Shown here piece after piece: positions 1 through 61,000 of a stretch of DNA of 64,000 nt. Below the pieces are notes generated by a model. The model did no database searches and was not told the DNA's origin. It was given only the letters and a program-made list of their open reading frames with translations. Numbering within the stretch: position 1 is the stretch's first letter; every line of letters starts with the position of its first letter. The stretch comes from Nageia nagi (lineage: Eukaryota > Plantae > Pinophyta), in contig JBITNC010000001.1 in the NCBI GenBank assembly GCA_050084985.1, positions 201,810,001 to 201,874,000 on the forward strand. Reading direction: 5' to 3'. The translations under genes were made by a program, and so were the position numbers.

Positions 1-1209
1 TCAAAGAAGGAAAGAGCTCAAAAGACTCTCAGAAGGATCCAGAACGAGAATTTGAAGTTCCAATTTTTGACAAATTAATGTAAAGTGCCTCGAAATGCAT
101 GCCAGAAGGCATCAATTTTTGTAAATATTTTATTTTTAGTATATTTTAGTGGGATGAGATTGTTCTCCCACTAAAACGATATTGTAATCTCAATTTAGCA
201 TTCAAATTAGCATTTTAAAGCTTTTTTAGGATCTAGGTCAACACCCTCAAATTTTGACCTAAAAAGTCTTAAAATAGACCATAGGGGTAACATTTTGAGG
301 CAGAATGTTGTAGTCCAAGAAATTTCCAATTTCTTTCAAAATTGAAAATTTTTGCAATTGAGGAGCAAATTGATGTACTTATGCAAAACTCTTTTGCAAA
401 CATAATGCAAATGGCTACAAGTTGATTCAAAGTGTGTTTTCATCTATGTGAGTGGTCGATTGATCTTTTTAGAGCAATTTCTGTAATTTGAACATTTTCG
501 TCCCTTCTCTTTGAAAACTCTCGAGTTTTAGGAGAATTTGTTGTAAACTTTTCAAAAATGTTTGAATTGTCTTGAATTGTTGCTAATTCATCACTTGTTA
601 AATGCTTAGTATTTTGAATCGACTTTCTCTTAAGACATCTTAGACCTCTTGTTCAAAACTATCCACCTTCACTCACGTTTAGTTCACTTGGTTGCATCGA
701 TCCTGTTCACAGAGTACCAACAATCAGTTCCACTTCTCGCTCATCTTTGGAATGATTGGACAATAGTCATTCATTTCAAGGAATTGATTGAATTGAAAGA
801 GATTTCTTAACCGATCAGAGAGAAAGAACATTTAAACAATGATGCATTGCGATTACCTCTTTGAAGTCTAGCCAGTATTCGACCTCATTCTTGCTTTTTC
901 TTTTCTTTATTTTACACTTTCTTTAAAACTTATGGTAACTTCCAAACTATTGTAAGATAACACACCTCAGTCCCTACAAAAACTGTGAGTTAACCGTTAT
1001 TACCTTTACTACACCACTCAGCTGAATCCCAAACAAGACCTACAAATTTAAAGCTCGTATTAACGACACGAGCTTTCTGATAGAAAACTTGGAGTATCAA
1101 TCCTTACAAGAGGAGTTCAGTAATGCATTCTCACCTACATGCTGGGTCGCTTTTCCATCTTGATCATATGAGCAATCGCCGAGTAATATGAAAGGTTTCC
1201 TTCCCAACA
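1..1209 (+). mobile_element. 3' part of an LTR ending ...CCCAACA, abutting the 3' internal end of a gypsy element
   Basis: Non-coding and ends in CAACA directly before the gypsy pol-end/PPT sequence GAGGGCAAGCAATC. Family not identified. Confidence 0.4.
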
Positions 1210-2199: not shown

Positions 2200-2551
2200 G
2201 ACCTTAATAAATCTGAAGATGACCTGTCGAGACACTGTATCCCTAGTGATGTCTCCATAAGTCTTTTCCTTTCCTCACATTCCCTTGCATTTATCCCTAT
2301 GTTTGTCCCTACATTTGTGATCTTTCTTCGCTTTCGTTCACATTTGCAATCTTTCCTCATTTATGGAAAGGATTTCCGGCATGTATTTCCCTTGTATACA
2401 GTTAACAAAATGCATCTTTGATTGTTGAGCCATCAAGACCATATTCCATGTGAGCACTTGGGGTAACTAGCCCTTTCAGGCGGAAGCAAGTAACGTTGTT
2501 TCCTCCAAGTCTTGTGCATGTTTTGGGCGAGGAAAGAAAAACATACCAACA
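2200..2551 (+). mobile_element. 3' terminus of the giant-LTR family (...GGAAAGAAAAACATACCAACA)
   Basis: Colinear with ~54570-54901 and near-identical over the last ~50 nt. Confidence 0.85.
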
Positions 2552-2719: not shown

Positions 2720-3424
2720 ATCAAATCTCCCCTTTTAACTAGGTTGTATAGTTTGAGGGACATGCCTAGGTTGCATGGTTTGGGGAAGATGCTCGTGCTA
2801 TTACAGTGAAAACATGCAACCTCCTCAAAACTCAAAAATTTTGCAAGGATGATAACACTATGCTATTTTTAACCCTTTTGAACAACAATTGGCATCAAAT
2901 CTATTAGCTTGGATCCTGATGAGGGGAGTTTGATAAGGTTCAATACTTTTGAGGACTTGCTTCCAGCATAAGCCTAAAATCATGCAACCTAAGGCAAGAG
3001 GTTGAAAACATGCGACTTCCTCAAACTCAAAAATTTTGCAAGAGGGTGAAAACATTTGACCTTCTCAAAACTCAAAAAATTTACAAGGATGATAACACCA
3101 TGCTATTTTTAACCCTTTTAAACAACAATTGGCATCAAATCTACTAGCTTGGATCCTGATGAGGGGAGTTTGACAAGGTTGCTTACTTTTGAGGACTTGC
3201 TTCCAGCATAAGCCTGAAATCATGCAACCTAAGGCAAGAGGGTGAAAACATGCGACCTTGCAAGAAACTTAGAATTTTCGAGAAAATTTAGCTCTATATT
3301 GAAGATGGGACTTCATCCTTCTAGATCTTTATTTGTCATCTTTACTGAAGATGCAATTTCTCTTCTACGAAAGTAGGGTCCTCAAATTTTGTAAAAATTA
3401 GGGGCGTGTTGTGCAGGCACAACA
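2720..3424 (-). mobile_element. 5' terminal fragment of the giant-LTR family
   Basis: Minus strand starts TGTTGTGCCTGCACAACACGCCCC...TTTGAGGACCCT, homologous to 47856, 33445 and 56015. Confidence 0.8.
2806..3260. repeat. Tandem duplication with 240-bp period
   Basis: AACAACAATTGGCATCAAATCTA at 2881 and 3121; AGCCT(A/G)AAATCATGCAACCTAAGGCAAGAG at 2971 and 3211. Confidence 0.95.
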
Positions 3425-26499: not shown

Positions 26500-28640
26500 A
26501 TGAATGAAAGTGAGGGTAATGAATCAGAAAATGAAATAGAACAAAACATGGAACAAGAATAAACATAACCTTCTGGAGAGGGGCAACAATACATCCATTT
26601 ATGAGTGCCCATCTTTGTTGTTAAAACAATATGCCAGAGGACCGTTTGACCCAAAAAAATCTTAACTTCAGTTTGTTACAAACTATGACAAGGGGAAAAA
26701 ACTTCAAGGGGGAGGGAGAAATTGGACTTGCCACTTTTGTTCCACTAATTTTTTTGGAAGTTATACCAAGGTTGTGTCACACCTTACAAATAGACAAGGG
26801 TCAAGGGTGAGAATATGCAAAAGCATAAATAGCTTCCAGTTTGTCGAAGCCTCTAGGCTTGACCAAGGGGAAAACCTTCAAGCACAAGGAAATTTAGTAT
26901 TGAGTCGACCTAGCCGAGCATCTCCTAATCCTCCTACCCATGTATCATCATCTTGCCCACAACCTTGTTCTTCTAGTTTACCGAGTTCTACATTGCCCCC
27001 TTCTAGAAAAAGAGGGAATGTGGTTGATGCATTGAATTTACAAGCAAAAGCAATGGTTGATGACTCTGTATGTAATTCTTTTTTCACATGGGTTGTCCTT
27101 CCATATTGCACACTCATTTTACTACAAGGATGTATTTGAAAAAGTGAGGGAAGCAAGGTTGTCATATGTACTTCCAACAGAGACTAGACTTCATACTACT
27201 CTTTTGGATAGGCAATATGCCAAGTGTACTTTAAGAGATGGAGGGGATGAAAGTAGCATACATGACCAATGGTTATTCTATAATGATGGATGGGTGGAAT
27301 GACATTCATCAACACCCACTCATCAATATCATTGTTACATGTTCAAAGGGTCATTTTTTTCTTCGGGCTATTGATTGCTTAGGGAAAAAGAAGGATGTAG
27401 AGTTCTAGTTTGTTCTTTTGAAGAACGCTATTGAGGAGGTTAGACCCTCCAATGTTGTGCACATAAACACTTTTAAAGTTTTAATTTTTAATTTTTAATT
27501 AAAATTTTATTTGTTTTAAATTTTAGATATTTTAGTTTTTAAAAATTTAACCTCCTATTATTTTGTTGTCTTGTAGGTCATTACAAATGCAGGCCCTATT
27601 TGTCGGCATGCAAGGAAGTTGACAGGGAGTCATTACAAACATATTTATTGGACCCCATGTTGTGTACATGCATTGAATAATGCATTGAAACATATTGGAA
27701 AGATAGCATGGGTGAATAACATGGTTGCAGAGGCTAGAGACTTGCAAATGTTTATTTGCAACCGTCACACTTCATCAGCCCACTTTCGCTGCTTCTCAAA
27801 TAAGGAGTTTATCAAACCTGTTGAGACAAGATATGCCACATATTTCCTCCTATTGAAGAGGATGTTTGAGATGGAGCGTGCATTATAAAGTATGGGAGTG
27901 ACACAAGAATGGAGGAGGTGGCCAAAATCTCAAACAAATGAAGGAAAATGACTTAGAGACAAAGTGTTAGATAATCATTGTTGGGATGACGTTAGGTAAA
28001 TGAAGTTTCGCTTTGTAGTTTTAATTTTTTATTATTGATTGTTTCAATGTTTATGTAGTATGTAGTTTTTTAACTTGCTTTCTTCAATCTTTGCAATTAC
28101 CTCGTATCTTTCATTAATCCAATCCATGTTGTCATAAAGTATGTTGATACATAATCTCCCAACTTAGAAGACATATGTGAAACTTTTGATAGCATGCTTG
28201 AGGAAATGAAAAAGATTATTTGTGCTAAAAATCTTTCATTTTATGAAGAGCACATCACACCCATTATAGTGAAGAGGTAATCATACCTATGTAACAAATG
28301 TTGATTGTTGATTGGAATTTTAATTTGGATTGTTTATTGTTCAATGCTTCACATAGTTTATGTTTTTAACTTTTTTTAATTAACTTTTTTATTTCTTGTA
28401 GGTAGGATAAGATGAACACCCCTGTTCATATGGCTTCCCATGCATTGAATCTGAAATGGTATGTACCCAGGGATGGAAAAAAGACACAATAATGATCAAG
28501 AAGTGAAAAATGGGTTCAAGAAGTTTATTAATAAGGTGTATACATCGGAAAAAAGTGTAATCATTAGATCAGAATTCATGCAATTTGTGAAACTCAAAGG
28601 GTCCTCAATTTAGCACACCAGAGTCTAGAGAGAATAGGAC
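26500..28640 (+). pseudogene. hAT transposase (BED finger, DUF659, RNase H-like core) with introns; the dimerisation tail resumes at 33446-33690
   Basis: WTCHFC...SHL, GCSIMMDGW, HIYWTPCCVHALN, ETRYAT; LVAVHSYLHL after 33446. Confidence 0.88.
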
Positions 28641-28659
28641 TTCATGCAATTTGTGAAAC

Positions 28660-30110
28660 CTCTCTTCTTTTTCTTCTTGGTCATGGTCTGCTTGAGCTTC
28701 TCTTTTGCTGCCAAGTCCCTGTTTATCTTGTTGATTTGCTTGATATCATCTATATTTCTGTATCTTTTGAACTTTCCTAGGGACTTGTGAGGGTAATCAG
28801 TTTGCCAGGTTTTCTTGTAAAATGCACCGATTACACCTTTAGGATCATAGTACTCTACCGCATATTCTATTGTGATGTCGTAATATGCCAACTCCATCTT
28901 CATCGTTTTGACTTGATGCCATGATGTGCATTCATACTCTCATATGCGGATAGGTAATTTGCATGTGGTGGCACCTTTCTTACACCAAACTTTCTCGTGT
29001 AGGTACAACAAGTGTCTACAAAGTTCCATCAAGATGAACTAATCACTTGCGTAACAAGGAAGTCTGTAAGGTAGCTCATTTGACCCGTAAACCCTGATAT
29101 ATGTGGCATCTGTTTCTTCAAGATAAAAATTTGCATGTCCTCGAAGAACTTGGATTGCCACTTGGGATATCCTGGTCATATTGACGGTCCCCTTTATCTC
29201 TACATATATACAACACTTGAATCCTTCATTCATCATTTTGAATTCATCCCACCAGTTTTCCAACATGAATCTAGGGTAACTCCGCCATACTAGTATTTAT
29301 GGGTCAAACAGGTACTTGGTATCTACTATGGCGGATCTTCTATTCTTGCCATGTAGAAGCAAGAATACCAAGTTAGAGCTCATGTAGAATCTCTTTGTTT
29401 CTACGAGTCTGGACAACTGTTGGGCTATGCAGTCACTGATCACCTTACTCCATCTGATCCCTTTGCCTCTACTAATATGATGTATAAAACCCACGAATTC
29501 CTTTCTAAATCTTTGATCATTCTCTTATCCCGTGATTCTGCACAGCATACTGATGATGGTCGAGATTGTAGGATAGATGTCTATCCTTCTTGATTGACTT
29601 AAGGCCTTTGCCTTGTAATCTTTGCACTCGTCAGCTAACCAATCTCCTATCAAGTTCCTCGGCTTGGTCAGGCTATTATAAAATCTAACAGACTCTTTCA
29701 TGGAGAATATGATGCCTTCGTTACTCCATGCAAATGCGCTCTCTATTCTGTCCATAGTGAAATCTAGTATTTTTGTGCCTTCATTGTCGAGGACTCTCTC
29801 CTTTGTGTCGCAATATCTTGCTACCTCGAGGCATAGTTCTGGGAATGGAGCGGTGAAAGGGATCAAAGAAGCTTCAATGATCCTGGATTGAGCAAGTGTA
29901 TCATTGAGCAGTTGTTCGTGTGGGATCTTGGCCATCTTCTCTAATGACTTGACGAGGTCAGTGTTTGCCCAATTTATGTCCTTGATTTGTCCAAGGCCAT
30001 CTACTAGCACAGCTATAGGGAAGAGAGCCTTCCCTCTTTTTTCCAAGGTGATCAGGCTAATCTTCATGAGCTTCTCCATCTGGAGCTCTGTTTTTCTTAT
30101 CAATGCTCAT
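28660..30110 (-). pseudogene. Decayed accessory ORF of unknown function (homologue of 50029-53490)
   Basis: IRWSKVISD, FYMSS.LV, TYIRVYGS.E.P..LP.YASD and YDPKGVIGAFY are shared with the plus-strand copy. Several stops. Confidence 0.85.
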
Positions 30111-30899
30111 GATCCAAACCTATGGAGTAAGACAAGGTGTTAGGAGTGATAATGGGTATCTCTTGGGTGATTTTGGAGCAAAAAAAGGGAGTCAAATTTT
30201 GGCCTTTTTAGAAGCTAAGTGTGGATTTTTGAGAATTCTGAAGTTCATCAAAAGTGGGAAACAAGTACATGGGATGTTGGCAAATAAATCTAGGTGGCTT
30301 GTGGCCAAGTCTCGGAGAAAATTTTCTAGTTTTTGGGGTCCAAATTAACTCGCTGTTTTTATAGCCCATGTATTCATTTTTTTGACAGGTTTTTGCTGCT
30401 TCGAAGCTTGGAAAGATAGGGATGTAAAATGGCTTTTCAAGTTTCATTCAGGGGAAGTGAATGATGAAGGCTACTCTCCTATGTGGGATCTATCACTTTG
30501 GTATTCACTTCGAAGTTTGGATCACTCGAAATTTTGGAGTTTTTTAGCCTTGAAAAAGTGTATTTTTGTGTTTTTTCACTTTTTTTCCAAAAAGCTTGAA
30601 AATGGTGAAAATGGCCAAAAGATAGGGGGGTCCGAAATTTTGAAATTTTTTAAAAAGTGGATTTGACCTAATGGGTGGATAGAGGATGGAATTTTAAGAT
30701 CCTTGAAAAATTTTAACAAGGTTTTGCCTTATTTTGGACCTTGTGAGCAAATTTGAAGTTTTTGAGCAACATTGTGAGGTTTTGTGAGGATTTTGCTCAA
30801 AATGGGTGCATGGAGACTCAAGGAGAGTGTTTGTGGAGCAAATGAGAGGCTTAGGAGGGTATTTATAGGTTTTTTTGTGCCTTTTGCATGCTCCTTAGT

Positions 30900-32560
30900 G
30901 GGTTTTTGACCTAAAAAGTGCTCTAGGGGTGCATTTTGCATAGTTTACAAGTTTTTGGAGCCTTTAAACACTCCATAGGATTGCAAACCTGCGCCTGATT
31001 TTTTGAGGCACTTCTTTGGGTCAAAATGGAAAGTTTTAAAGTTTAAATGTGATTCAAATCACTTCCTTCACCCATTTATGTGCCTAAAATCGAATTTTGA
31101 TGACTTTTGGGGCTTTCTCCTTGCATCCAGGAGCCATTTTTCACTTTTTTGGGTTCTCCAATGGTTTGCAAACCTACACCAGACTTTTTGGGGCATTTCT
31201 ACTGCTCAAAATCGAAAATTTGCTGACCTAAACATGCTTAGAATGCCCTTTTCTATGCAACCATGTGAAGAATTTTGATTTTTTTGCAAAATTTTCACTC
31301 CTCTTCATGCGAGGTGCTGATTTTCACTTCATTGGTTTTAGAAAATTTGGCAAACCTGCACCTAGCATATTGGGCCTCTTCTCTTGCTCAAATTTGAAAA
31401 TTTGCAAGTTTAAATGTGTTTATTTTCATGTTTTCCATGCATTTGACACCTTAGGTTCGAATTTCGAGATAAAAATTTGAACTTTCTTCACCTTAGACAC
31501 TAGATTTCATCTCATCGGAATTCCAATGGCATGAAAACCAGCGCCTGCCTTTTAGGAGCCTTTTCATCGCATGAAAACCAGCGCCTTCCTTTTAGGAGCC
31601 TTTTCATCACCCAAAATCAAAATTTTGCAAGTTTAAATGTGCTAGAAATGGGGTTTTCCATGCAATTGACACCTTGGGATCAAATTTTGATGCATTTTTC
31701 ACTTATCCCTCCTATTTAGGTGCCATTTTTCATCCCTATGGAATTAGAAACATTTGCAAACCTGCATCTAGGCTTTGGAGGGTCAACACTTGCTCAAAAT
31801 CAAATTTTTCATGACCTAAATGTGCTAGAAATCACATTTCATATCCAATGAGCCCTTCAAACTTGAGTTTTGACCAACTTTTATCAACTTTTTTTTATTT
31901 TAGGTGCCATTTTTAATCCCATTGGATTTCCATACCTCTCAAAAATTGTGCCTGGCCTCTAGGGTGTCCCAATGTGTTCAAAATTGAAAAATTAGAGACC
32001 TAAATGTGCTTACCATCATGTTTTTTTGTGGTCCCAAGCACTTAAAACTTGATTTTTGGTCAAAAAACATTCTATCTTGTCAATCTAGGTGCCATTTTTC
32101 ACTCCAAAGGATTTGGAAACATCTATAAACTTGCGCCAAGCATTCTGGGGGTCTTTACTTGCTCAAAATCAAAAATTTCGAGACCTAATGTGGCTTAGAA
32201 CCATTTTTTCCACTCATTCATGCATTTGGATTTCATTTTTGATGCATTTTCACTTTTTCTTTACTATCTAGGCACCAAAATGCATCTCTATGGATTTCCC
32301 ATAGGCTTGAAAAATTGCTCCTAGCCTTATAGTGCCTCAAACTTGGTCAAAATCGAAAATTTCGAGTCTTAACTGTGATAGAATTCACCTTATCTCTTTG
32401 AATACACTCTTAGACTCGAATTCCAATACCATTTGCATTTATCTATAAGAAACTTGCACCATTTTTCACTCCAATGGATTTTCAATACCTTGGGAAAACG
32501 TGCCTGGGGCTAAGGCTACTCAAACTTGCATTTTCAAACCATTCCGAAATCAATATGTAC
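30900..32560. repeat. About 9 degenerate tandem units of ~185 bp inside the giant LTR
   Basis: GCAAACCTGCGCC / TGCTCAAAATCGAAAATTT / GACCTAAATGTGCT / TAGGTGCCATTTT recur at ~30981, 31166, 31349, 31533, 31754, 31940, 32124, 32308 and 32493. There is an extra 40-bp duplication at 31529-31608. Confidence 0.85.
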
Positions 32561-34159
32561 ATTTCCAACCACTCCCGGCATTTTCGAGTTCAAACTCGAT
32601 CAAAACACCCTTTTTGACATCTTCGAACTCAAACTCTGCATTTTCGATGATTTTCGAGCTCAAACGGTGCAAAAATGACCATTTTCGCATTTCTGGGCTC
32701 AAAGCATTCAATTCCACCCATTTCTAGCATTTCCAGTCCCTTAGTGTAAAAAATGACCTTTTCCGACATTTTTGAGCATTTCTAACCATTTTGGGCTCAA
32801 CTAACCACCTTCGGTCAGTTCCAAGCTTTCCGGACTCAAATCGTGCAAAATGCACCTTTTTTACCATACTAACCATTTTTGGGCCCAAAAGTGACCAAAA
32901 TGCGCTTCTACCTTACTTGCCCTTTTCCAACTTTTCGAGTTCAACTATGACAAAAACGTCCATTTTTGTCATCCTTGTCATTTTCAAGGCACCTGGACTC
33001 TAAGTTGACAAAAAATGCTAATTTCTATCATCCCGATACCTTAGCACCTAAATTCTACAAAACACGCCTTTTTTGTTGCGCTAGGCACCTGTGAGCTCAA
33101 TCTCTGCAAAAACGCGTCCTTCTATCAAATCTGCCAATCTTACACTTATATGCTAAGAAAACGCGTCTTTTTCCCGCTCTGTTGGCTACTTGGTGAAAAA
33201 CTCCTTTCCTGGATGCTATCGTGATCCAAAACTACGTCTTGCTTGATGTTGCTTGAAACCGAACCGTGCACTAAACTGATTTGGTGCCTCTGTGGCTACC
33301 TGTGTGCACTGCTTCGCCACCCAACCACTCTGATTCTTGTCTCTGGCAGTTGTCTAGTCATCTCAAGGCAATGTTGTCCATTGCCTTCAAAAAACGTAGG
33401 GTCCCCAAAATGCTGCATCTTGGGGTGTGTTGTGCAGGCACAATAGCTTATCCCTAAGAGAATAGAGAGCTAGTAGCAGTGCATAGCTATCTTCACCTTA
33501 GAGAGAGTTAAGCTTGACTACAAGGCTAGTCCAATTGCATGATGGGATATTGATCCTATGGAGGCAACTAATCTTGAGGTTGATGATGATGTGCAAGGGT
33601 TGGTAGGATTGTCGTTGGAAGGTGTCCACTTGGATGATGAGGGCAGCTCATCAGATAGTCTTCCTGATGAAGAGGATGACATTGATTACAACCAGGATAT
33701 ATTAGGAGTAAATGAGCCCTTATAGCCATAGTTTGATATTTGTGATTTTGGCATTTTGCAACCTATTACTATGATTTCAATACTACTATATTTATCATTT
33801 AACTTTTGAGTATTTTTTATTTGAGATTTCAGATCTATCCTAATGGACAAGACTGATTCAGATTTAATAATATTATGGTGTTATGATCATTAATTATGGG
33901 TCATTTTGATACTATGTTTCATACTTGATTTCTAATTTAGGTTCCAAGTGTTTTATATATGATTGAATTGATAATAATAATGAATTAGATATAATAATAT
34001 TTAAAAAATCTGAAAATTCCGATATTTTTTACTAGTATTATACTAGCCGCTCCCCCTATCATTTTCGAGGCGCTCCCTAAAAACGACCTCAGCCATTCCC
34101 TTTCATGGGAACGTGCTCCCACCTCTCCCGACACACAATGGAACCTTGCCTAATACTAA

Positions 34160-36946: not shown

Positions 36947-37194
36947 TTTGTTTATAGGTTCCAATGACCACTTCTTAATTTGAATGATGTAAGGCTTTCA
37001 AAAACTACCACCGGTAAATGGAAAACAAAGCCTATGACTATTTTCTCTTACTTGTTTTGTAAGACTATCCGGAAACATGCAACTATTAGGAAGATTGGAC
37101 TGCATTAGGTCTGATTTTTTATCAACTACTGCATTTTGAGTGTTTACATGAATATTATGAGCATATATCTTCCTAAATTGGGTCAGGAGCAACT

Positions 37195-37440
37195 TGTAAT
37201 ATTCCCAAATATTCTCAATGTACAAATTAGCCAAGCAAATGCCATATCAATATTATATAATGCTCCTAGGCATGCCACGAACTACACTAGGGCATCAAAC
37301 ATGCAAAATAACAAGCCACAAAGCCAAACGATGCACCTCTCTAGCTAGATTCAACCCTTATACCCAAACATCACACTTGGAGGCTCATACACCATGCAAA
37401 ACAAATCCAACAATGCCAACGATCCACCATACAAGCATAT
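37195..37440 (-). mobile_element. LTR 3'-end fragment
   Basis: TGTAATATTCCCAAATATTC matches the terminus at 14916. Confidence 0.7.
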
Positions 37441-40185: not shown

Positions 40186-43100
40186 AAACTTGACAATGTC
40201 TTGGAATCTTTTGTAGGAAAACTACTTCACTATTCATTCCAAAGGATGCCATGGAAGAACCCTAGTTCTAACGAATTCTCAAGATAGTTTCTTTAACCTC
40301 ATGGTCGAATAATAGTTAGAATCCCTTTTGTGAGGAAGTTCAATTTCTTCTTGCTTTTGTCAAAGAGAAATTTCAAATGCTGCCCTCAAAGATTCCCCTC
40401 TTTGCTGCATTTGTTTTCGTAGAACCGTAGATTTTTGTAATGCCACTTGAGTTAGTTCATATTTCCTTTTCCATTCTAAGCTTTCTTCTTTTGTCTCTAT
40501 CAACAATTCACAAACATCATCATGGTTTTCTTCTAATGCTTCATACTTCCTTTGTATACTGGCAAACTTATCCAAATTCTTTCTTGCATCCTCATTACGT
40601 TTTTTACTTTTTCTGTTATTTGCAATTTGTCTTAAAGTGAGTGGCTTTATGTTCTCAATTCATTTTTGATGGTTTTCAGTTTAGTGTCCAGTTCAGATAC
40701 TCTAGAGAGTGCAACTTGATCCCTCCTCTATGCCTCCACGAAGTTTGACTTGATGTTTGCAAGCTCAATACGAAGGGTGTTTACTTGTTCTTGTTCCTAT
40801 AGTGATGGTTGTTGTGTGTCTTTCCCTCGGTCCAGTGGAATAGTTCTTTCTGCATCTCAAACCATCTTCAATAGATCCTTCCTTCCTTTAAAATCCAAAT
40901 ATGTCTTAAAGTCTACCATCTTTTTGTATTTTTCTGATATCTTATTGTACTCTATATTCTTTCTTTCTTCCAGCCTATTTTTGATCCCGTAAATAGGAAA
41001 CATCCTTCAGACGGTACTATTTAGCATACCCACAAGCTCAGATCGACACAACGTCATCTTGCCTCTCGGACAGCTACTAGATAGTCACAGCTTGTACGAT
41101 AGTTGTACATCACTAGCTTCTTTCCCTCTAGAGGTGATCCCTCGGTCTTAGATGCTAGGAAAGACTCGCGAGCCTTGCTTAGCCCTTCTAGTCTAGGACA
41201 CTATGCCTAGAGTGAACAAATCTACATTTAATGATTGAGGATGTTGGTATTGTTTCACTCGATGTAGTGTAGCGTAGCTTTATCGCTTTTTGTGTTTACT
41301 TTGTAAGTTTCTGGGGTTTCTCGTCCTAGCATTTCTACGTTTAGTTGGATTGTACTTTTCAAGTCCCATTGACCTATTTTGATCACCCGAGGACATTAAT
41401 AATATTTCTATATGTAGCTTGTCTAATTCTGCTCCTTTGGATCAACAACTTCTTTCACCATAGCTATTAGAGTATCTATCTTATGTTCATTCATCTGGCT
41501 AATTTTAAAATTCTCTTTCTACATTTTGCCAATTTTATATTTGAATTTTCCAGATCCTTATTCCTCCATCTCAAAAATAATTTTCACTCTTGCCAACATG
41601 AATTGCCACCAAAAATAAATTTCAAAGTTGAAATAAAACTACTAAAACCTGGAATAATGCATAATTAACTCCAAACCTTAGCAAGTATGCCAAGATTCCA
41701 TACGTCCAAGCTCAATTGAGAGAATTTTTGCAGTTTCAAGGCGAATTAAGCTTCTTCAATACCCGTCTCACTTCCAGCTATCAAATCTTAGCAATGCTTG
41801 CAAAAATGTCCCAACATCTCCATTTTAGCCTTCATGGTGCAGATACCACTATGAAAATGTGTCAAATTTAGCAGTTTGAATCCTCTTGTGGCTCAAGGAC
41901 CTCCTTCCAGTGACTAACTGCAAAAATTCTAAGCAATTTGAATCATAATGACTCAATGACCTTACAGAAACTCTCAAAATCAAGATTCCATGGTGAAAAT
42001 CTAACAATACCTGTAGTTGGATCTCACTATAATGCAAACACTCATCAAAATTGGTCTTAGAATGCCAACAACCTCCTCAATGCAGCTCCAGAATGCATAA
42101 TAGTCTCCAAAAATGCCAATGTCTACCCCATAATGGATTCAAAATGCATATCGATCATTCAAAACACCCTTAGAATGCCACTATCCTCCTTACTAAGCCT
42201 CCAAAACGCTGAACAGATCTCAATTCTTGTCTCAATATACCAACAATAGTCTCAAAGTGACAGAATGACCTCAGATCTAGGCCTCAAGTCATACGTTCCT
42301 CCTTGAAGCCTCAAAACTCAAAATTGTGGTCACTATAGGTCCAACGAATTGCCAGAAGGGTGAGCTCTATCCTCTAGACCTCTAACGTAGCACTCCTAGT
42401 ATTGAGATCCAATAGACTTGATGCCAGAATATCAATGTTCGTCTTCCAGGTATAGAATACTCATATCTCTACAATTTTTCAAAACTATCACCATGAACTC
42501 AGGTCAATATCGTTGTAAAACTTGTTCCAAATCTTCTAGCAGGACAACAAGATCATTTTAGCAAATACTCCTTACCCGAAAGAAAAGGGTAAGATCTCCT
42601 CAACAAGTGTTACCAATGTGATCTGTGATATCTCCTTAAACCTTCTTACAACCAGAATGGCAAGAACTCCTCTTCAGCTCAACTTGAAAAATACTTTGTG
42701 TGCAAAACCTTTGATTCCCGCAGAATGGTAAAATCAAGGCTCTGATACCATTGTGATGATCCCAAACCGGTGGATCATGCTCAAACGTGCACTAGGAGAG
42801 GGACGTTCGGTTTGGAGCTTCGAATCTAGCCAATGCAACTCAAAAATACCCAAACACTCCAACATCTAGCTAATTTATGATAGAAATGCAAATCAAACCA
42901 CAAAATATCTCCAAATACCCAACATAGCACTTCAGGAAGTAAACAAATATTTAACTACGAAATTACTCTTCTAGATCCAATGTCCAAGCACAAAGAGACA
43001 AAATACCAAAATGTAGACAGAAAATGTAATTGTATTGATAGAACAAGAGAGTAACGCAATTACAATGTTTTTGTGCCTAAGGAGCTTACACCAAAGTTGC

Positions 43101-46904: not shown

Positions 46905-49847
46905 CTGCAGCAATATTTATTGGCATGCATTCAATAAAGGAATAAAATCCTAATATTATTGCATCACATTTAATTGCAAGCATGTGATACTTCTTTCTCA
47001 AGGTGATATCAAATGAAAATTAAAGATAAATTTAGGTATCTGTGTACTCAGACAAACAGGTCTGAAGAAATATCCATAGCAACAAAGAAGAGATTTTAAA
47101 GTGTGGATAATAGGTCAATGTAACAACAAAGAACATCAAGTTTACAATAGGCAGGGAAAAATGGTGGAGGCCAAAGACTAGCTCATAACAAACATATAAA
47201 CTAGAAAGGGAGATGGAATAAACATCATGAGAAACCATAGACATATGATCCATGTCCACATACAAATATATAGAAGCTGGTAGAGGCTAACATAAAAAAC
47301 GGAAGACAGCCTGAGTACCCCTATCATGCATTTCAAGTTATAGGTAGTACTGGTGACCCAACAGCATATCATCCTCAATACTAAGAAGCCATTGACAGGT
47401 GTGATAACAGCCCTTAAGATGGGATGCTAAAGGGCCCAAATGGGTGACCCATAAGGGAAGGGATGTACTCCCCCGAAAAATCTAACATAACATCCAACGT
47501 TGATGAGTCCATGTAGGAAGACACTAACATGTGTCTACCCTTAAGATGTGGTGTATAGGATGGAGGACCTAGAAGATTTCTGAAATTAAGTGCAGCAAAA
47601 CCAAGGAAATAGATAGATGTATATACCTTAATTATCAAAACCTATACGCAGATGGCAATAAAAACTTTGTGATGCTCCAAAATATTCCTTATTCCAAATA
47701 ATAGCAAAATGCGCAACAAACCATGCAATGGTCAAGAAACAATGCCAAAACACAGAAATATTGCCAAAATATCCAACACACAAGCAAATATGAGAGCAAT
47801 GGTGCAACACTTCAATATGTAACAATGAATGATCAAGATACAAGGCAATAGGGCCTGTTGTGCGTGCACATCACCCCCAAAAAATTTTGCATTTTTGAGG
47901 ACCCTCATTACACGAAACATCAAGGTATAAAAGATTTTTCTAAGTCAAATGCATGCCTTCTAGGCCAAACAAGGATAAATGTGGTAAATCTGCATCTTCA
48001 AGTTCAAACAAGTCAGAAATTTGCCATTTTGTCTAGGGCACATGTTTTAGGGGACATGCTTTTGCATGTACCGTAATCGGTGCACCCCCTTCATATTGCA
48101 TAGTTCTTGCATTTCCGGGTTCAAATTACATCTTTCATGTGCATTTCTTACTTGGTCATTATGTAAAATTGCATCCCCCTCCATTGTATTCCATTTTCGA
48201 GGGTCATTTTGAAGGAAATCAGCATATTTTTGGCCTGAGCGCATGGTTTCAAGGACATGCTTTTGCATGTACCAAAATCGATGTGCTCTAGCGGATGAGG
48301 TAGTTTTGACACAACGTATTTTTGAAGGAAAATTGCAAAATGGGCAGAGCGCATGGTTTCAGGGACATGCTTTTGCATGTACCAAAATCGGTGTGCCCTC
48401 TTTCAAGCATGAAAATTTGACTAAGTGTCCAAGTTTTGGACGTCTACCATAAGGGAGACGGATGTGTTCACATGCGTTGGGCCTCCACTCACACCAATCA
48501 CTACATGACACCTGTCCATTTGAGAAAAGTCTATAAAAGGAAGCTCAACTTCAAGATTTAGTTTATCTAGCTAATTTTGGAGCATTGTGCTAAGTCTGGT
48601 TCAGAGAAGCACGTCCCCCAAAGGATGCACCCTATTCTGCATGGTAATTTTGGAGGTAATTTTCACTAAATTATAATTTGTTGCATTGAGGTGTGTGTCA
48701 TGAACCAATGCGAATGATTTTGGAGAAACGTGAAAGCACTCTACCAAATTAGTGCGCCGGCTTCTAGACATCTTGACCCAAAGGCATATTTTTTACTAGT
48801 ATAGAATTTTTCATAAAGCGCCCAAGCGCATGTTTTCTATTACATGCTTTTTCACTCCTCCGAAAGGGAGCCCCCAAAATTCTGGCACATTTTTCAGTTT
48901 AAGTCTTTTTGAGGTGCCTACTTCCTAGGCGCAAGGATTTTGGGACATGCTTTTGCACCCTTCCAAAAGGGTGCAACCAAACAACAAGGGTTTTGAGGAT
49001 GATGAAATTGACTAAGTCCTTTTTTTCATGTACTGAATTTGGTTGGTGCATGTATTCCGGGACATGCTTTTGCGCGTACTCTAGAATGTGCGCCCACCAT
49101 CCAAGCTCCGTTATTTGACCTCATAGTCAACCAATAAGGTGGTGACATGTGGCAAAGTTGAAGGTTATATATAGGAAGTTACCCCTTGTACTATTTACCA
49201 CTTCATTCCATTTTACATCGAGGCTACCAGTCGCACCATTTTCAAGACATGCTCAAGGAATTATCCAAATTTGTGCGCCCGGGAGAGATAAGGGTTTGAG
49301 AAGCCGCCCGAACTACCAAGAGCCATTTTTTTTAAGGGGTGAGTTGGATCTCAGAGTCCGTTTTCTAAAATTCACTTCACATTTTTCTGCACAAGTTTAC
49401 CCTAAATTGACCTATGTGCATGTTTTTCCATTACTGCTTAAGGACTCATCCAAAACAGTGCACTCAGGTCCAGATCAAGAAAACTGGCTAAGTATCCATG
49501 ACTATCAGGTGCATTTCATTCTCCTTTCATTTGTGCATGAAAATTTGAGACGCATACTTTGCGAGACATGAAAACGCACGTGCCCAAATCCATGCACCCA
49601 TCAAGAAGTGGTGATCCGACCTTTCAATATGGAACATTGTTGCCCTGGATTTGACTAAGTGATGTGTTCTCATCTTAGGTGTCTAGTCGCATGTTTTTCA
49701 GGCAGTGAAAAAGCACCCTTCTGAAAAGGTGTGCCCTAGGGATTGTGAGCTAAAATTGACTATGTATTGAGGAAATTAGAAGTCAAACGGCTAAGAAGAC
49801 AAGTGGCATACATGCAATGTGCCATTCATAAAACCTCCATACGACCT

Positions 49848-50020
49848 CTATAAAGAACAATCCCAGTTCATTTTTGCAGGACGTTTCACAGCCTAGACCT
49901 GCACGTCTGGTCATTTTCCTACATTTTCCAAAACACATTCAATTTGGTGCTTGACCCTTTTTAGGGACATTCCCAACCAGAATTCAGGCTTTTCTCTATT
50001 ATTTTCTGCATACTTTTCAG
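49848..50020 (+). promoter_or_regulatory. Candidate TATA box (CTATAAAG) and 5'-UTR 3' splice site for the accessory ORF
   Basis: The minus copy has the same arrangement: TATAAAAA 30356-30363 and an acceptor 9 nt before ATG 30110. Confidence 0.55.
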
Positions 50021-50028
50021 ATTTTAAG

Positions 50029-53000
50029 ATGACTTCTAGGGTAAGGCCTACCCCATCCAAGACCAAAAAAGCTTTAGAAACAACTTTTTGAAAGGCATGT
50101 CCCAGACGACCAGATGGAAAGGGTTATGAGGGAAAGTCAGATAGAATTCCAAGAAAGAGAGAAACCAAAGCTCCTTGAAGCCAAATTTAAGAGGAGATTC
50201 ATTTTTGTTGGAGATACAGAGTGGGGAAATGTTGATCCCATCCAAACTATAGGCTCCACTGCCTCCATCAGTAAGGAGAACGTATTGGATGAAGTCGTCC
50301 ATTCTTGTGGACTGTTCAATGCCACCATGATGCCTTTTGTTATTTCATTTTCTGACTTATGTTACGAAGTTTCTAAACGATGCAATTATGGCAAGAGACT
50401 TCTCTTGGACACCGAAGGGAATGTGAACGTGGATTTCTCTCCGAAGGGGATTGAAGCCACCTTTGGCGAGAGAAGATATGGAGATGATTATACCTTGGCT
50501 CAATCAGAAGAATTCCATGACACCATTGTCCGACCTGGAGATTATATTAGAAGATGCTTATGTGATGATTACCAGGGCATCCAGGGCCAAAGATTAATTA
50601 GTGCCCATAGGGAGGAGTTCCTTTCCACAATCGCTAAGTTGATCACTTTGTTTTCCAAAGTCCACAAGTCAAGAAAATGACTCCAAATACAGGAAACAGT
50701 TCATTGGATTTATTGCCATGATCAGTTCAAGAAGAGCTATCCGATGGAGCAAGGTAATCAGTGATGCCTTGTGCCACCAGTTGGCCTACTTTGGTTCTTC
50801 CAGAAGTTTCTACATGAACTCTTACTTAGTGTACATGTTGTTGCATAGCAAGTTCAAGTCGAAGGAGCATGCAGATGAAAGATATCTAGGCAAGAAGGGC
50901 ACCCCGATGTGGCAGATTTATCCAAAATGGTGGTATCATAATAAATTTCGGCACTACTATGAGAGGAACGACCAATGGGAGTATGTCATTAACAAAGAGA
51001 TCAAAAGAGAATCAATAGTCAAGAGGATCTTTGATGCAACTATTCAAGCCATCAGCATACATGCAGACTTCTACCTGCAGTATACTGATCACACATACAT
51101 CAGGGTCTATGGCTCTAAAGAACAGCCCTTACTCCTTCCCAGATATGCCAGTGATAGGATGATTCTCATGGAGTTTGCCAGACACTTATTATTTTTGAAG
51201 GAGTGACTATGGAGAAAGAAGGACACAACCATTAACTTGCCCATTTCCATTGCAAGTTATGTTTGTCAGACTTGGGTTGAGGCCTATAACATGAAGAAGG
51301 AGCTGCAGCAATACGTCTTCTTCAAGGAGGCAACAGCTAGGAATTATGATCAAAGAGGCGTTATCGCCCGGTTCTACAGCATTTCATTCTAGAAACCTGT
51401 TATTTACAAGCATAAATCCTTGGGGAATGTGGAGAAGTGTAGGAATGTGCGAGACAAAGGGTAAATAGACAGATACTCTTTTGAGTAGAAACAAGGCCCC
51501 TCTTAGGTAGAAAAGACGACCTAGAGACCTAGAACTGTGAAAGAAAAATCCAAAGAGGTCCCATTAAGGATCAAAACCCCTCCTTCTACAAATGTTGCAC
51601 CTCCACAAGTCAAAACATCCTTGCTTCCCATTGGGAAAGGACAAGGAACGTCAAGAGAATGTGTCTCAACAGATCCTAGTAAACACAACGTGGTGACTTA
51701 CGCGGAAAAGAAAAGCCAATAGGAGGTGGTTGATCTTAGAGACATTGGTTACCATGATTTTTCTTTGAGCATGCTGGAGAAAGCTTGTGCCAATGATTCC
51801 CCTGTCAAAGAAGCTCCATCAAGACCCACTCATCCTCCTAGATGTAGAGAGAAAGTTCCCCCATTGCAACCAAGTTCCAGTTCTTCCAAACACTCTACTT
51901 CCTCCTTTAATGAAGAAAGTGATGAAGAACCCGATCGTACTGAAGAAGGCTAAGAAGAAGATATAGAGAGCTGGGAAAATGATGAAGAAAGTTGCGGTGA
52001 AGAGGAGGAAGAAGAAGAAGATGATGATGTTGACGATATTGATGTTGATGAAGAATATCTCGGTTAAGAGAATGTAGCTATAGGTGCTTTTGCACCTAAT
52101 GAAACGGAGATTAAAACTCTCTCAAATAATGATGATGACTTGTTCATAGACATTGAAACTTATGATGAAGAAGTCCATATTGTTGGAGTAAGATGTGCCA
52201 AGGAAGTTGGTTCTTCCAAACCCTCTCCTATTGAACATAAAAGGAGGCTCTCATCTTCCCAAAAGCCCTCTGCGAAGAGGACTAGCCATGAGAGATCCCC
52301 TCAACCACGCAGGAATGTTCTATCATTAGGTGGTGGTGGTGGTGGAGACGAAGAAGATTAAGGAGATACCGAGGAACAGAAGAAGAAGAGGAAGCAGGAT
52401 GAGCACCAAGGTAAGGAAGTTGTCCTTGTTCAAACTACTCCAATGAAGGAAGTCAAGAAGATCAATATAGGCCGAGCGTTGGTACAGAGGCTTGCTCCAA
52501 AGCCAGCAACCGAACATCAAGACCTAAGGTCTAAGGATGAGGAAGAGGAGCTCTCCGATGGTGAGAAGGTCAGAAGGGTAAATACTTTTGTCTCTACATC
52601 AAGAAAGGAGATTTCCGTCAGCCACTATTACTTCAAGGAAAAATGTCCACAAAGACACAAGGACTACATGATAGACACATTCAAGATGCCCGTAAAGCTA
52701 GGTCTGATAGCCAAAAAGCACATAGTCACTCAAAATGTTGTTGTCATGGAACAAGAAGGCTATGAGGCTAAGAAAGAGGTGAGAAGACTCAAGAAGGAGC
52801 TCACGGTCAACAAGAAAATCATTAAGGAGTTTCAGATTGAGTACCACCCCTATAGAACTGAAGAAACAAGCCTCGATCCATGTAGCATGGGAGTTGATGA
52901 AGGACCTTTTGAATAAAGAGATGATGGAGACCATTGAGAAGTTATCTTCTCAAGTCTATAGCCTCCTTAAGAAAGGTGTTGAAATCAGAGAACTAAAATC

Positions 53001-53490
53001 CCAAATGACTGCCCTCCTCGAGAAGCTGGATGGTCATCTTGCCACTGTCACCCATCTGCAACAGATTTTTGCTAACAAACCTGAAAAGTTAGTCTACTGC
53101 CACAAGTTCATGTATCAGCAAGACTGGCTTAAGCATGCACTAGGGAAGTGTAACATTGTTTTAAAAGTCAGAATCCCTTTGAGAAAGAAAGTAGAGGAAC
53201 AAATGAGCTAGTATGTATACTAGCTAAAGTTCCAAGGGGAAGATAACAGTGTGCGAAGGAAAGAAGCAATCTTGGCAAAGGCACAAAATTTGATCCAAGC
53301 GCATTTTAAGGTCAAGGATCTCAATCTACTAAAGGCAGGGCAGCCCATTCATCATGAGAGGCAGATGGTCATCTGGAAATTTCATATGCAAGCTACGTCC
53401 AAGCAGATTGGAAACTACTTCAAACAGAATGGCAGCATCGTGGGCATGATTTCCAAAGGAGTAAGAAAGACCGTGTTGTTCTTGGAATAG
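50029..53490 (+). pseudogene. Decayed ~1,150-codon accessory ORF: conserved N-terminal domain, acidic tract, basic patch, C-terminal coiled-coil-like region
   Basis: Consecutive ORF fragments 50114-53490. ATG at 50029 follows a polypyrimidine/CAG acceptor. Homologous to 28660-30110. Confidence 0.85.
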
Positions 53491-55889
53491 ACCACTAAGT
53501 CGTACAATCTCACCAACAAGGAATCAAACTCCGCCAGTACCGGATTAGATCTGGCCTAGATTTGATCCACTCGTAGATTCTCTTTGCGATCATCTTTTCA
53601 ATGTTACATGCATATTGTTGGAGGTTGTTGTATTTAGACTTCATTTACTTGATTTGACTCACCAGATCAAATCTATCAGACTCATTTACGGCTCTAACTA
53701 GTGCAAGGATGAGGTTTTGCTCCCACCAATTAGATGTCAAACATTTATTGCATATCTGATTTTCTTTTTGCATGGGTTAGAGGTAGATTAGACATTTTGT
53801 GGCTATGGCATTTATATTTTGTCAATTTTTAAATGCCACTTGCATAGTTTTTTATCAGATATCAGATTTTGCATTGGTATGTGTGTTGCATGTGAGCACA
53901 CCATATCAAATCTAATGCCTTTAGGGCAACAATTCTAGTGACGTATTTATACCCCACTTGGGCCATTTAGAAGAGGATTTTTCCATATAGGTGTTTTTTG
54001 CATGTGAAAGATTTCAGCATTCCATTGCATAAAAATTTGATGCATAAGGGATTCTTTGCACATCATGGTTGCATATTGTTACATCTCTGGTGCATTTTGA
54101 ATATCATATTGAGGGTACTGCAATCAAGAAAGGAATGTTTCTGTTTATATTATTGAATCTCATTGACAGTTGATTTCTTTCTGGAATAGTTTTGTAAACT
54201 AAATGTCGTGAAGATTATCATTTATGGGATCATGCATCTTGTCCTGTAAGCCTCTCTTGCTGGTTTGGGTACTTTTTACTGGTTAAGTGTATTCTCTTTG
54301 AAAACTGCGATTTTTAAGGAAAGATGATTGAATATCTTTGGACATAGTTTAAATTGTTCATTGCATGATTTGCATGTAATTGGATGTATTTTGTGATGTA
54401 TAGCTTATCTCTATGTCATTCAGTTAGAATTTATGTATTCACATGTTTGTCTTTTCCCTTCATTCAATTTCCATTGAGTCTCCCACCATAGACACTACAA
54501 CTTCCCGCTCTCGTCTGGCAGTAACTTGAGCTTTTGCTATTTGTTGCTCGGCTTGATCAGTGAATACATTTTCTTAAAGAACTCGGAGATGACCTGCCAA
54601 GACACTGCATCGTTGGTGATACCTTCATAAGTCCATTATTCATATTCCTATGCATTTACCCTGCAATTGTGATCTTTCTTCGCGTTCGTTCACATTTGCA
54701 ATCTTTCCTCTTTGAGGAAAAGAATTCTGACAATGAATTTCCCTTGTTTACGATTAACAACATGCATCTTTTTCCATTGTGCCCTAGTCCATATTCCATG
54801 TGAGCGCTTGCGGTAACCAATCCTTTCAAGCGGAAACAAGTAACGATGTTTTCTCCAAGTCTTGTGCATGTTTTGGGTGAGGAAAGAAAAACATACCAAC
54901 AGGGCCCAAAGGGCTGATGTCTGGCTCAAAGGACCAATTTTGAAGCTCAACGAACTCAATGTGCACCAAAAAGGTTGACATCATAGTGCAAGGGCCTCTA
55001 ACTCCTGGATCTGACTGACGTCTGGCTCAAAGGACCAAATCTGAAGCTCAACGAACTCAATGTGCACCAAAAAGGTTGATGTCATAATGCAAGGGCCTCT
55101 AACTCCTAGATCTGAGATGAAGAACAAAAACAATACTCCCTTAAACAATGGATGCTCCACCAAAGGGCTATCCCCATGCCTGGATCCCGAAGGAGAAGTG
55201 ATGCCACTAGATAAGACTAAGGGTTTCCATCTTTAGCCAAGATCTAGTGAGGTTTGCATTCCACTAAACCCTTCCTTTGCTAGGTTTTTGTCCAACAAGA
55301 GGCCCAAGAGATGATTGTGTGCCACACTCCAAAGATAGAAGATGTCAAATATGCCAAAGATGCCTTCACAATGATGTGCTCCTCCTTTATATAGCTTGAT
55401 GCCTCATCCTAGATCTAGATCTCACATTGTTGTTTCAGATATGATGAACCTTAAGAGAGACATTATGACAAACCTTAAACGTAAACTAGAAACTTTGCCA
55501 CATGAGACTAAATTGGTATGTAAGTTTTGTGACAAAGAAGACATGCTAGATTTAGGAGATGATGACAGGTATGAATCAGATTTTTATCCATTTATAACAT
55601 TGATAAAGAGGGCTCATTTGAGACTTTTTGGGAACCCTCTTGGAACCATTTAGAGTCATAGATCAGCCATGATATGACTACTATGAGGTATGATATCGAT
55701 TCTGATTTTTATGACAGCTCTTTGAGATATTATGGAAAATATATATTGATTGCATTGATAAATGGTAAGGATGAAATTGAGTATTGGTTGAATTTAGCCA
55801 ATTGGTTTGGTACGCATTGGGATACATTATGTAAAGGGACAGATACAATAGATTGAAAACTTGATGGGGTTGCATCAGAAAGTATTTTT

Positions 55890-56015
55890 GTAATTCCAAT
55901 AGTCACCTTTCAAGGCTGTCGCCACAAGTCAATCTCAAGGCAATGCACCTCATTGTCTTTGCAAAAACAGGATCCACAAAATCTTGTATTTTGGGTGTGT
56001 TGTGCAGACACAACA
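55890..56015 (-). mobile_element. Short 5' terminal fragment of the giant-LTR family
   Basis: TGTTGTGTCTGCACAACACACCCAAAATACAAG on minus. Confidence 0.7.
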
Positions 56016-58056: not shown

Positions 58057-61000
58057 CAAGGTTGTAAAACTCAGACTCGAGAATTACCCGGCCAAGAAAA
58101 ATCTGGAGAGTACTCGGCAAAAACGCGGTACCAAAACTCGTCAAAAAAAAACACGAACATTTTATGAAACAAAACACAAAAACATATTCAAATATGGAAT
58201 TAGAGAGCTGCAATGATCATTGATTGTTTGTGGCCATTAATGATCATCAAAAATAGTGAATACAACAATGTATATAGTCATAACTCAAAAGTAAAGTAGT
58301 TCTAAACTTCTAAATAGTAAAGTCTAAAGATTGCTAGTGCTGGAATAAAAACTAAGTCTAGACTCTAAGAGTCTAACTCTAAAGTTCTAAACTACTAGTG
58401 TTGCAATCAGTGCAATGGGCTCTTTCCCCTTGTCCTGGTCCTCTTATATGTCCTCAGCTCACTCCTCACAGCACGTGGTGGTGAAGGATGTGGCACTGGC
58501 ACATCCTCATCCCCAATAGAATGCTCAACCTCATGTATGTATTCATCCTCATACTCATCCTCAGGCTCCACATAAATTGCAGTTGCTGTAGTAGATGTAC
58601 CTTCACCTACTCTAGATGCATCTTCATCTGTTGCTTCCCTTTCAAGTCGCTCGATGTCCTCCTCAATGAAGATGGCTTCCACATCTTCAACAACCCAATC
58701 TACTATGGGATCCATAGAATCTAGGTCAATGGCATCATAGCAATCTATGCCCTCCACTTGTCTAACATGAAGACGAAGATTGTATTGAACGAACACAAGG
58801 TCAATCAGGCGCTGCTGCCTCAACCTGTTGTGTCTCTTTGTGTGAACGCTCTCAAAATGGACCAATTGCGCTCACACCCAAAAGCACTACAAGGCTGACT
58901 CAATATCCTCACTGCCATCCTTTGAAGATTTGGACACCGACCACCATTATCTTCCCACCAACAATCTATGAAAAAGGAATTACAATTTCAAAAACTCAAT
59001 CTAGCTTTTATAAAATACTAAATTACTAATAGTAAAAAGACCACATTTATAATTTTATTGATTTTAGATTATTACCTAGTCGCAAAGTGTTCCTCGACAT
59101 TTTACAAATAACTAAAGAAAGAACCCTCCCTTCGACCTTCTTGTAGGCCTACATCTCTTCTAGAACAAGAGCCCTAAGATTATCATCAAGGATCATCCTC
59201 TCAATGCAACTATAGAAGCCATTCATAACCTCATTATCAGCCTCAAAATTATCAACATAAAAAAACTTGGAGTTCAAGTAGTACCCCGCTGCATGTAGAG
59301 GTCGATGGAGATGATGGGTCCATCTCCTATCAATGATACTCTCAAGGGCATCCAATTTATTTTTTTTTCTTTCATACATATGTTGAACAGCCCCATTTGC
59401 CCTATCCATGGCCTCATATAGATAGCCCATCGGCATCAAATCACCATCTACAAGACGAAGAACCTTGACACAAGGTTGTGTGATCTAAAAATCATTAAAA
59501 AAAACAAATTTAGATTTAGATAAAGAAAAATACAAACTACAAAGTTACAAAGCTACAAACTAAAACTTGAAAAATAAAAAAACATAAAAGAAAGAATTTA
59601 AATTACCTTCAAGCCTCATCAACGTCCTTCCAAAACAAGTCATCAAACACTATCTTTTGGACCTTCTCCCTATCATCACTATGACAAAAAAAAGACTCCC
59701 TCCATTTATCACTAATAAGCATCCTCTTAAGAGGAGCTTCTACTTCAAAGAGGCTTTGTAATGCAAGAAAATTGGAGGCAAATCTAGTGATACCTGGACA
59801 AATGATCTCCTTGCCACCCGTGTGCTCTCATCAAACTAAGCACCCAAGTGTGGTTGTAGATGAATTTGGTAATTATTTTTGCTTCATCAACCACATTTTT
59901 AATCCATATGAGCTTGCCCATGTCCTCTAGCATAAGGTTAATCACATGGGAAACGCATGGGCTCCAAAATAAGGTTTTATACTTCCTTTCAAGCATTTTA
60001 CATGCAGAAACATATGCTAAAGCATTGTCTATCACAACTTGGACAACATTCTCCACACCCACTTCCAACACCACTTCCTCAAGCAATTTGAAAATCAGCA
60101 ATGCATCTTTTATTTTATGAGATGCATCAATCGACTTCAAGAAGACTATTGATCCACTTGATGCCACCATGAAGTAGAGTAGTGTACAGTTCTTCGTATC
60201 TGTCCATCCATCTGACTTAATAGTGCATCCATGTTTGCACCAATTCTTTTTTTTGCTCATCTACTATGGCATGTGTAGTAAGTACTGCATCCTATAGCAA
60301 AGGACCACTAAAATCCTTTGCGATAGGGGCCTTCATCCCTCTTCCAACATTGATGAATGCATTCACCATGGCTGGCCAATAAGAACTACTTGCAACATTA
60401 AAAGAAATGTTGCAATAGTACCAAAAATTTGCAGCTGCTCTTCGGCCTGCTTGGATTTTATCTTTTCCCCATGATGTAGTGTCAAGGCAAGGTTGTGCCT
60501 CTGTAGGAGGAACAAAGAAACCTTCCATGGTTTATGCCTCACTGAACCTGGAAGTGTTGAATTTTCTTTTGGCTCTAAACATGGATCTTGGGCAAAGAAA
60601 GAATTTGACACTGAATCTTCAAAGCTCACGTTCCCCCCAATCCTTGCACCAACTGCCATCTTGGTCTTTTGCTTTTCTACCTTCTTTTGTGAGGATGTAG
60701 CAAGTAAATCTTGCATCTCACATATAACCTCGGTAGGTACAGCAAGACAAAGTGCTACATCTTTACCAGGTATCCTTGCAAGATGATATTTTAATCTATT
60801 GATAGCACCCCTATAAGGTCTTTTGCAAAAATTGCAAATCACTTGACCTACAAGATCACCCTTTGTGCCATACTTCCAAGCAATATGTCCCTGGTGGTTG
60901 AGGAGGAGGTGCATTCGAATGGACATCATCTTCAATTTCCATCTGGAAAGTGAAAAAAGTAAAATTCCTATTAAAAAACCTATAAAACCTTAACCCTAAT

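Follow-up and report, generated by a model that had tools for sequence, protein, structure and literature searches.

A 64,000-nt window of the gymnosperm Nageia nagi (contig JBITNC010000001.1, positions 201,810,001 to 201,874,000 of the forward strand) contains a 7,046-bp insertion that is likely the solo long terminal repeat (LTR) of a Ty3/gypsy-type retrotransposon with a complete accessory gene in its U3. We consider it probable that the open reading frame (ORF) of this unit sits within a true LTR, and the chances are slightly better than even that this location holds together with the assignment of its protein to a VANC/PMD-like fold. The insertion and its parts are laid out as follows.

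47856..54901, + strand: whole insertion, likely a solo LTR (U3-R-U5), based on its ends, target-site duplication (TSD), empty site, depth steps and lack of Pfam matches
47851..47855, + strand: left TSD, GGGCC (ends inspected; empty-site alignment)
54902..54906, + strand: right TSD, GGGCC (ends inspected)
47856..47873, + strand: 5' terminus of the family, an 18-nt palindrome (TGTTGTGYNNGCACAACA) followed by a C-run/A-run; four sites in the window, none in 100 shuffles, and a fifth in family locus L003
48041..49599, + strand: motif array, six to seven copies of ~47 nt (core GACATGCTTTTGCA), specific to the subfamily and candidate binding sites
49166..49175, + strand: TATA-like box, 863 nt 5' of the ATG; its position agrees best with that of the TATA which two relatives have at 757-758 nt upstream
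49990..50020, + strand: pyrimidine tract and AG, predicted splice acceptor of an intron in the 5' untranslated region; same layout in relatives
50029..53559, + strand: decayed ORF of ~1,170 codons, read as a path across stops and frameshifts
53560..54901, + strand: 3' non-coding block (1.34 kb) common to the subfamilies, including an ORF-less one; likely the remaining U3 plus R-U5
53944..53955, + strand: second TATA-like box, likely the LTR promoter, at a near-constant distance from the 3' end
54587..54901, + strand: conserved 3' terminal block, matching window 2217-2551 at 79% and present in copies that far outnumber those of the ORF

The unit is a real insertion

A first-pass annotation of the window had described TGTTG...CAACA ends and a perfect GGGCC duplication splitting an unrelated LTR, and its coordinates proved exact: the unit starts with TGTTG at 47856, finishes with CAACA at 54901, and is flanked on both sides by exactly 5 bp, GGGCC. 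Because this pattern alone is close to chance and non-significant (six TGTTG..CAACA pairs with such a TSD among 3,597 in the window, 3.5 expected), an empty-site test was applied. When joined over one GGGCC, the flanks match an uninterrupted copy of the host LTR (62769-62961) through the junction (69%, 201 nt, E 6e-10), and that copy has just one 5-mer at the insertion site. This result makes the insertion real.

The boundaries were also visible in contigs from two public runs (3,813 and 7,389 aligned to a 9.4-kb stretch, mostly at 80-95% identity), which covered all bins of the unit. Summed contig depth rose from 0-1.5 to 76-162 at the left end and fell from 3,771/6,712 to 39/108 at the right end (54901); contig depth is not copy number and is used here only for boundaries and rough proportions. 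As the annotation had maintained, the unit has no terminal direct repeat, gag or pol, and no Pfam family at all was detected in its six frames (stops read as X). With TG..CA termini, a TSD within the 4-6-bp range, a demonstrable empty site and no gag, pol or terminal direct repeat, the unit looks like a solo LTR in its ends and content, and it is a real integrase-type insertion.

The ORF was functional and encodes a predicted VANC/PMD-like domain

The ORF path spans 3,531 bp, a little more than the ~3.4 kb first described, and decay is evident from at least 13 in-frame stops and three frameshifts. For the three unsaturated pairs, dN/dS was 0.25 (563 codons), 0.13 (476) and 0.29 (733), as computed by the Nei-Gojobori method on tblastx segments, a choice biased towards conserved stretches; an out-of-frame segment raises the ratio, and five of the eight pairwise comparisons were saturated and gave no ratio. 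The ORF was under purifying selection and was formerly functional. Intact natural homologs of 758 aa and 838 aa exist, and phmmer returned 74 relatives from 1.84 billion representatives, two of which, P0035 (SRCR) and P0067 (lipocalin), were judged false and excluded from alignment A8. The named homologs are hypothetical proteins of Taxus chinensis. Seven near-identical Taxus entries from different scaffolds, grouped in cluster P0075, are members of the transposon family annotated as host genes, and units of this kind may underlie many gymnosperm 'hypothetical proteins'.

The protein comprises an N-terminal globular domain of ~480 aa, an acidic linker (43% D+E across 100 residues) and a C-terminal helical part with heptad-like stretches near its end, the latter by crude prediction. 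It has no transmembrane segment (highest 19-residue hydropathy 0.8-1.4), and an env-like role was rejected on this ground. Pfam gave nothing credible for the protein or its relatives: neither PMD (PF10536) nor DUF1985 VANC rose above the curated cut-off, and PF10536 had no sequence match in 85 members. A sequence search of the PDB gave no match, the ESM Atlas no usable match, Foldseek against PDB and BFVD nothing at E 0.001, and VIA on Foldseek's 100 chains no match. A first structure model (P0004, pLDDT 38) showed helical-bundle noise only and was set aside. The predicted fold of a relative, however, matches VANC21 (PDB 9lnk) across 241 residues, a link at the level of the fold only, and the N-terminal domain is accordingly predicted to be PMD/VANC-like.

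Gene order is kept across diverged family members

Further members of the family were found in the window, as listed below, and in five metagenome contigs (longest 8.8 kb) obtained from 243 pattern matches. PBS and PPT stand for primer-binding site and polypurine tract.

28628..33445, - strand: second member, truncated, with the same 5' terminus, 3.3 kb containing a different ~183-bp repeat array, TATA, acceptor and a homologous ORF
60..1209, + strand: 3' block and 3' terminus of an L003-like member; no PBS behind
2217..2551, + strand: 3' terminus of another member; no PBS behind
2750..3424, - strand: another member's 5' part, truncated; no preceding PPT
55634..56015, - strand: 5' part, truncated, of a member with very high copy number; no preceding PPT

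The ORF of the 33445 (-) member has aa identities of 26% and 43%. In L003 and L005, a 3' block homologous to that of the insertion (z 9.5 and 9.2) directly follows the stop codon, and a related terminus comes after it. Across these diverged subfamilies the same order is kept, namely 5' terminus, motif array, TATA, acceptor, ORF, 3' block, second TATA and terminus, and both termini are conserved in five copies each. Because the linkages of the 5' terminus to the ORF and of the ORF to the 3' block are family-wide, a deletion chimera private to this copy, which the annotation had named as the alternative, is unlikely.

An ORF-less member was found inserted in the ORF of L003 on the opposite strand (L003 1-1687, -). 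It links the 5' terminus of the family with the 3' block found in the other members (z 6.8 to the insertion, 6.2 to L005 and 2.3 to L003), carries its own palindromic motif three times and a central TATA, and measures ~1.75 kb, the contig stopping ~70 nt before its terminus. This version has the look of an ordinary LTR. In both public runs the two termini were alike in depth and ~10-fold deeper than the ORF, so most family members probably lack this ORF or carry diverged versions of it. The highest summed depth (3,587 and 9,972, then ~20) was reached by a ~100-nt 5' terminus at 55910-56015 (-), a terminal block common to many subfamilies. The 33445 member has its start within hAT-like sequence and breaks off near 28620. 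Scans of viral contigs returned no family locus (one scan: two confirmed stretches, no loci), and genome contigs returned no relative; four genome-contig matches to the 3' pattern were 24-nt chance matches in bacterial genomes and were dropped.

Non-coding motifs and promoters

The terminal palindrome and the ORF are separated by 2.1 kb of non-coding DNA, and the repeated motifs noted there by the annotation are borne out: GACATGCTTTTGC occurs in six copies with at most two mismatches at 48053-49061, and a repeat search added the seventh. The insertion's 14-mer has five copies with at most one mismatch in the 5' region of the unit and none in 11 other regions, the rest of the window included. 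Motif arrays above shuffles, each with different words, were present in the insertion, L002 (a different 9-mer, seven exact copies; shuffle maximum 6), L003(-) (the palindromic word as its own motif) and the 3424 copy. The array in the 33445 copy equals the shuffle maximum, and L004 showed none.

Upstream of the ORF there are three TATA-like sites (further ones at 48531 and 49849) rather than the single box first reported. The splice acceptor fared better, its AG lying at 50019-20, 8 nt before the ATG at 50029, and all four members covering this region have the predicted acceptor 8-11 nt before the ATG. The second TATA-like site, placed by the annotation at ~53945 and ~950 bp from the end, was found at 53944, with 958 nt to the 3' end in the insertion, 984 in L005 and 1,030 in L003. 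Within the 3' block, 54587..54901 has a summed depth ~10-fold that of the unit interior in the two public runs. About 70 nt from the 3' end, a conserved block (54815-54835; L005 4100-4125) contains a splice-donor-like word (GTAAGT in L005) that could pair with an acceptor in a downstream internal region. An Rfam search gave one sub-threshold snoRNA match on a GAA/GAT repeat, which was rejected.

Solo LTR or another kind of element

Several observations weigh against a solo LTR with a trans-acting gene in U3. None of ten termini adjoins a PBS or PPT: no PPT precedes the five 5' termini (47856, 56015, 33445, 3424, L003), and no PBS follows the five 3' termini (54901, 2551, 1209, L003, L005). A TGG within the first 8 nt past the end of L005 was not counted as a PBS; by eye, the sequence continues into the coding sequence of another element. 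Leaving out the insertion's own ends, this result has P 0.006-0.009 at the solo ratios of Picea/Pinus (PMC5751070) and P 0.23 at four solos per full element. The 23 contigs running past 54901 have diverse flanks, and a few deep PBS contigs could hide in the majority count. No gag-pol or any pol was linked to a family member among those found (window and short loci). The annotation's central claim of an accessory gene in the U3 of a solo LTR thus has the real insertion, the family-wide linkage and the purifying selection behind it, but a whole unit repeated around PBS-gag-pol-PPT was not found in the short loci searched (longest contig 8.8 kb). It had also held that the solo LTR keeps a trans-acting gene; the ORF is kept, but with its stops and frameshifts the gene of the present copy is dead and not itself trans-acting today. 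Moreover, tandem duplication alone could also produce such motif arrays, which are compatible with a pairing of protein and motif but no proof of it. Finally, L003 alone has a PPT-like tract and TGTTGG directly after the stop, with a CCAACA end 1.19 kb later, which fits an internal extra ORF (eORF) and a 1.2-kb LTR.

This last arrangement speaks for an ordinary Tat-type element, in which the ORF would be a sense eORF of the internal region, ahead of the PPT, the 1.2-1.8-kb block would be the real LTR, and the 7-kb units would be derivatives of recombination or deletion. In line with this, among TatII elements 26% carry a sense eORF on the 3' side and 23% one on the 5' side (PMC6317226 supplement 5), known plant LTRs reach ~5 kb (PMC6317226), and the termini are so much deeper than the ORF. 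We nevertheless regard it as unlikely. It requires two precise deletions, repeated in subfamilies that are 26-43% identical in protein; the purine tract after the stop, considered as a relic PPT, occurs in one of four members and is missing in the insertion, in L005 and in L003's closest 3' relative (window 60-1209); and in neither the insertion nor the 33445 copy does a 3' block separate the ORF from the 5' terminus. The similar depths of the 5' and 3' non-coding bins point the same way, weakly, as depth is not copy number. Speculatively, L003 may preserve the ancestral condition with an internal eORF, and the gene would have become part of U3 when the start of the LTR shifted upstream.

The bare termini, the diverse flanks behind the 3' end, the similar depth at both termini and the conserved 5' palindrome would also suit a unit that is no remnant at all, but a repeat-less TG..CA element that an integrase-like enzyme, provided in trans, mobilises as DNA, with the ORF-less 1.75-kb form as a short derivative; VANC-like genes with motif arrays are, besides, so far known from DNA transposons. 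However, the unit contains no transposase, and its terminal inversion is just 5 bp. Ginger/GingerRoot elements have long terminal inverted repeats (100-150 bp), 4- or 6-bp TSDs and an integrase-like DDE transposase (PMC6839031), as against a 5-bp inversion, a 5-bp TSD and no such enzyme here. A conserved outward-facing TATA ~1 kb from the end is sensible only if something downstream is transcribed, and ten termini are few, such that solo-rich families would look identical. We give this explanation little probability. About as little goes to a third, which accepts the LTR location but gives the protein some other nuclear or particle role and treats the motif repeats as ordinary U3 enhancers for host factors: the missing transmembrane segment makes an env-like role unlikely, and the motifs vary between subfamilies together with the protein, as in VANDAL.

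If the unit is instead a solo LTR with its gene in U3, the full element would have carried the 7-kb unit twice around PBS-gag-pol-PPT and would have been copied by reverse transcription from the second TATA. Its interior would then have been lost through LTR-LTR recombination, which long LTRs favour; long LTRs are reported to form solos more often in angiosperms (PMC7251063), and an effect of LTR length was undetectable in P. abies (PMC5751070). The upstream promoter would drive a spliced mRNA for a ~1,170-aa protein with a modelled VANC/PMD-like DNA-binding domain, an acidic linker and a coiled-coil-like tail. By analogy with VANC, this protein would bind the element's own motif array and keep cognate copies unsilenced in trans, and given an ORF in a true LTR we see such a motif-binding anti-silencing role as an even call. 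Rather doubtful, and put forward tentatively, is the broader analogy that a gymnosperm lineage moved a VANC-like anti-silencing gene plus its target-motif array into U3, with each solo LTR left behind by host deletion remaining a self-contained unit that unsilences the family in trans, and with protein and motif co-diverging. As part of that same tentative proposal, gene and array might form a retroelement counterpart of VANDAL/VANC in genomes whose size retrotransposons determine.

Relation to known systems

VANDAL belongs to the Mutator-like DNA transposons, encodes a transposase of its own and has a TSD of ~9 bp; here neither a MuDR transposase nor such a TSD was found, the unit having a 5-bp TSD and TG..CA ends. 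Genes for proteins are known within retroviral LTRs, as with MMTV sag and HIV nef, which are duplicated in the provirus, kept in solo LTRs, measure ~0.6-1 kb and act on immunity, whereas the ORF described here is 3.5 kb long and has its own predicted promoter and intron. With VANC21/VANDAL21 of Arabidopsis the family shares family-specific motifs repeated in the non-coding DNA of the same element and a conserved domain alongside variable regions, to which the predicted fold match may be added; VANC binds short family-specific motifs clustered in non-coding repeats (PMC5735166). VANC has been described as dicot-specific (PMC13547354), in contrast to the present gymnosperm element. Through VANC, the modelled fold would fall in the same superfamily as MAIN/MAIL1 and the PMD-A proteins encoded by Gypsy elements. 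Such Gypsy-encoded members exist, and PMDs encoded by transposable elements have been proposed as anti-silencing factors; a PMD inside an LTR is not described in the parts of these sources covered (PMC5418596, bioRxiv 10.1101/2024.09.27.615353).

Among Ty3/gypsy elements, TatII/TatIII of gymnosperms and Ogre of angiosperms share with the unit a 5-bp TSD, TG..CA ends, long LTRs, repeat arrays and an extra ORF (PMC6317226, PMC4408406). In Tat lineages IV and V the eORF encodes a PMD-type domain followed by a coiled coil, to be compared here with a fold-level link and crude heptad stretches. Tat elements are recognised by RT/RH/INT phylogeny, an archaeal RNase H and a PBS of Asp/Asn or Arg/His type; the members found here contain no reverse transcriptase or PBS. 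Tat/Ogre eORFs are internal (in TatIII antisense and 3'), whereas this ORF is in sense between the two termini of one unit, which at 7 kb exceeds the ~5-kb LTR maximum given in PMC6317226 and has no Pfam PMD match. Reviews likewise place extra ORFs in the internal region (PMC7264820, PMC6317226). A full-text literature search, with most subscription journals outside its range, turned up neither a plant element whose LTR contains an ORF nor a gymnosperm retrotransposon with a VANC-like gene; the sequences and element table that accompany PMC6317226 (supplements 1 and 3) lay outside that range too and may bear on novelty.

The function of the extra ORFs of plant retrotransposons is an open question (PMC7264820, PMC4408406). 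The predicted fold would tie a Pfam-orphan gymnosperm family to a protein with a solved DNA-bound structure, and since candidate motifs lie beside the gene, binding can now be tested directly. [quoted passage not shown] Such units likely escape LTR finders with low limits on LTR length.

Surrounding window

The window consists of repeat-filled DNA with nested LTR fragments and hAT (DUF659) remnants; judging from an ORF fragment described below, a host gene with a very long intron may contain these repeats. Eight nt from the right TSD, the host LTR carries a near-perfect 101-bp tandem duplication (54914-55115, 93%), of which the uninterrupted copy at 62769-63190 has a single unit. Decayed hAT-type elements (DUF659, zf-BED) are located at 26666-27888 (+) and 58407-60989 (-). 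Many related LTRs of a chromovirus-like family, with 30-bp tandem units (GCCAACGTGGGG core), occur at 1239-2163, 7900-9113, 13300-14190, 16480-17600, 19390-20603 and 35940-40186, and Met-tRNA-type PBS sites at 42755, 56611 and 62699 (-). An ORF fragment at 5686-6201 (-) with HLQHLGHPIAND, which had no Pfam match, resembles an RNA pseudouridine synthase exon.

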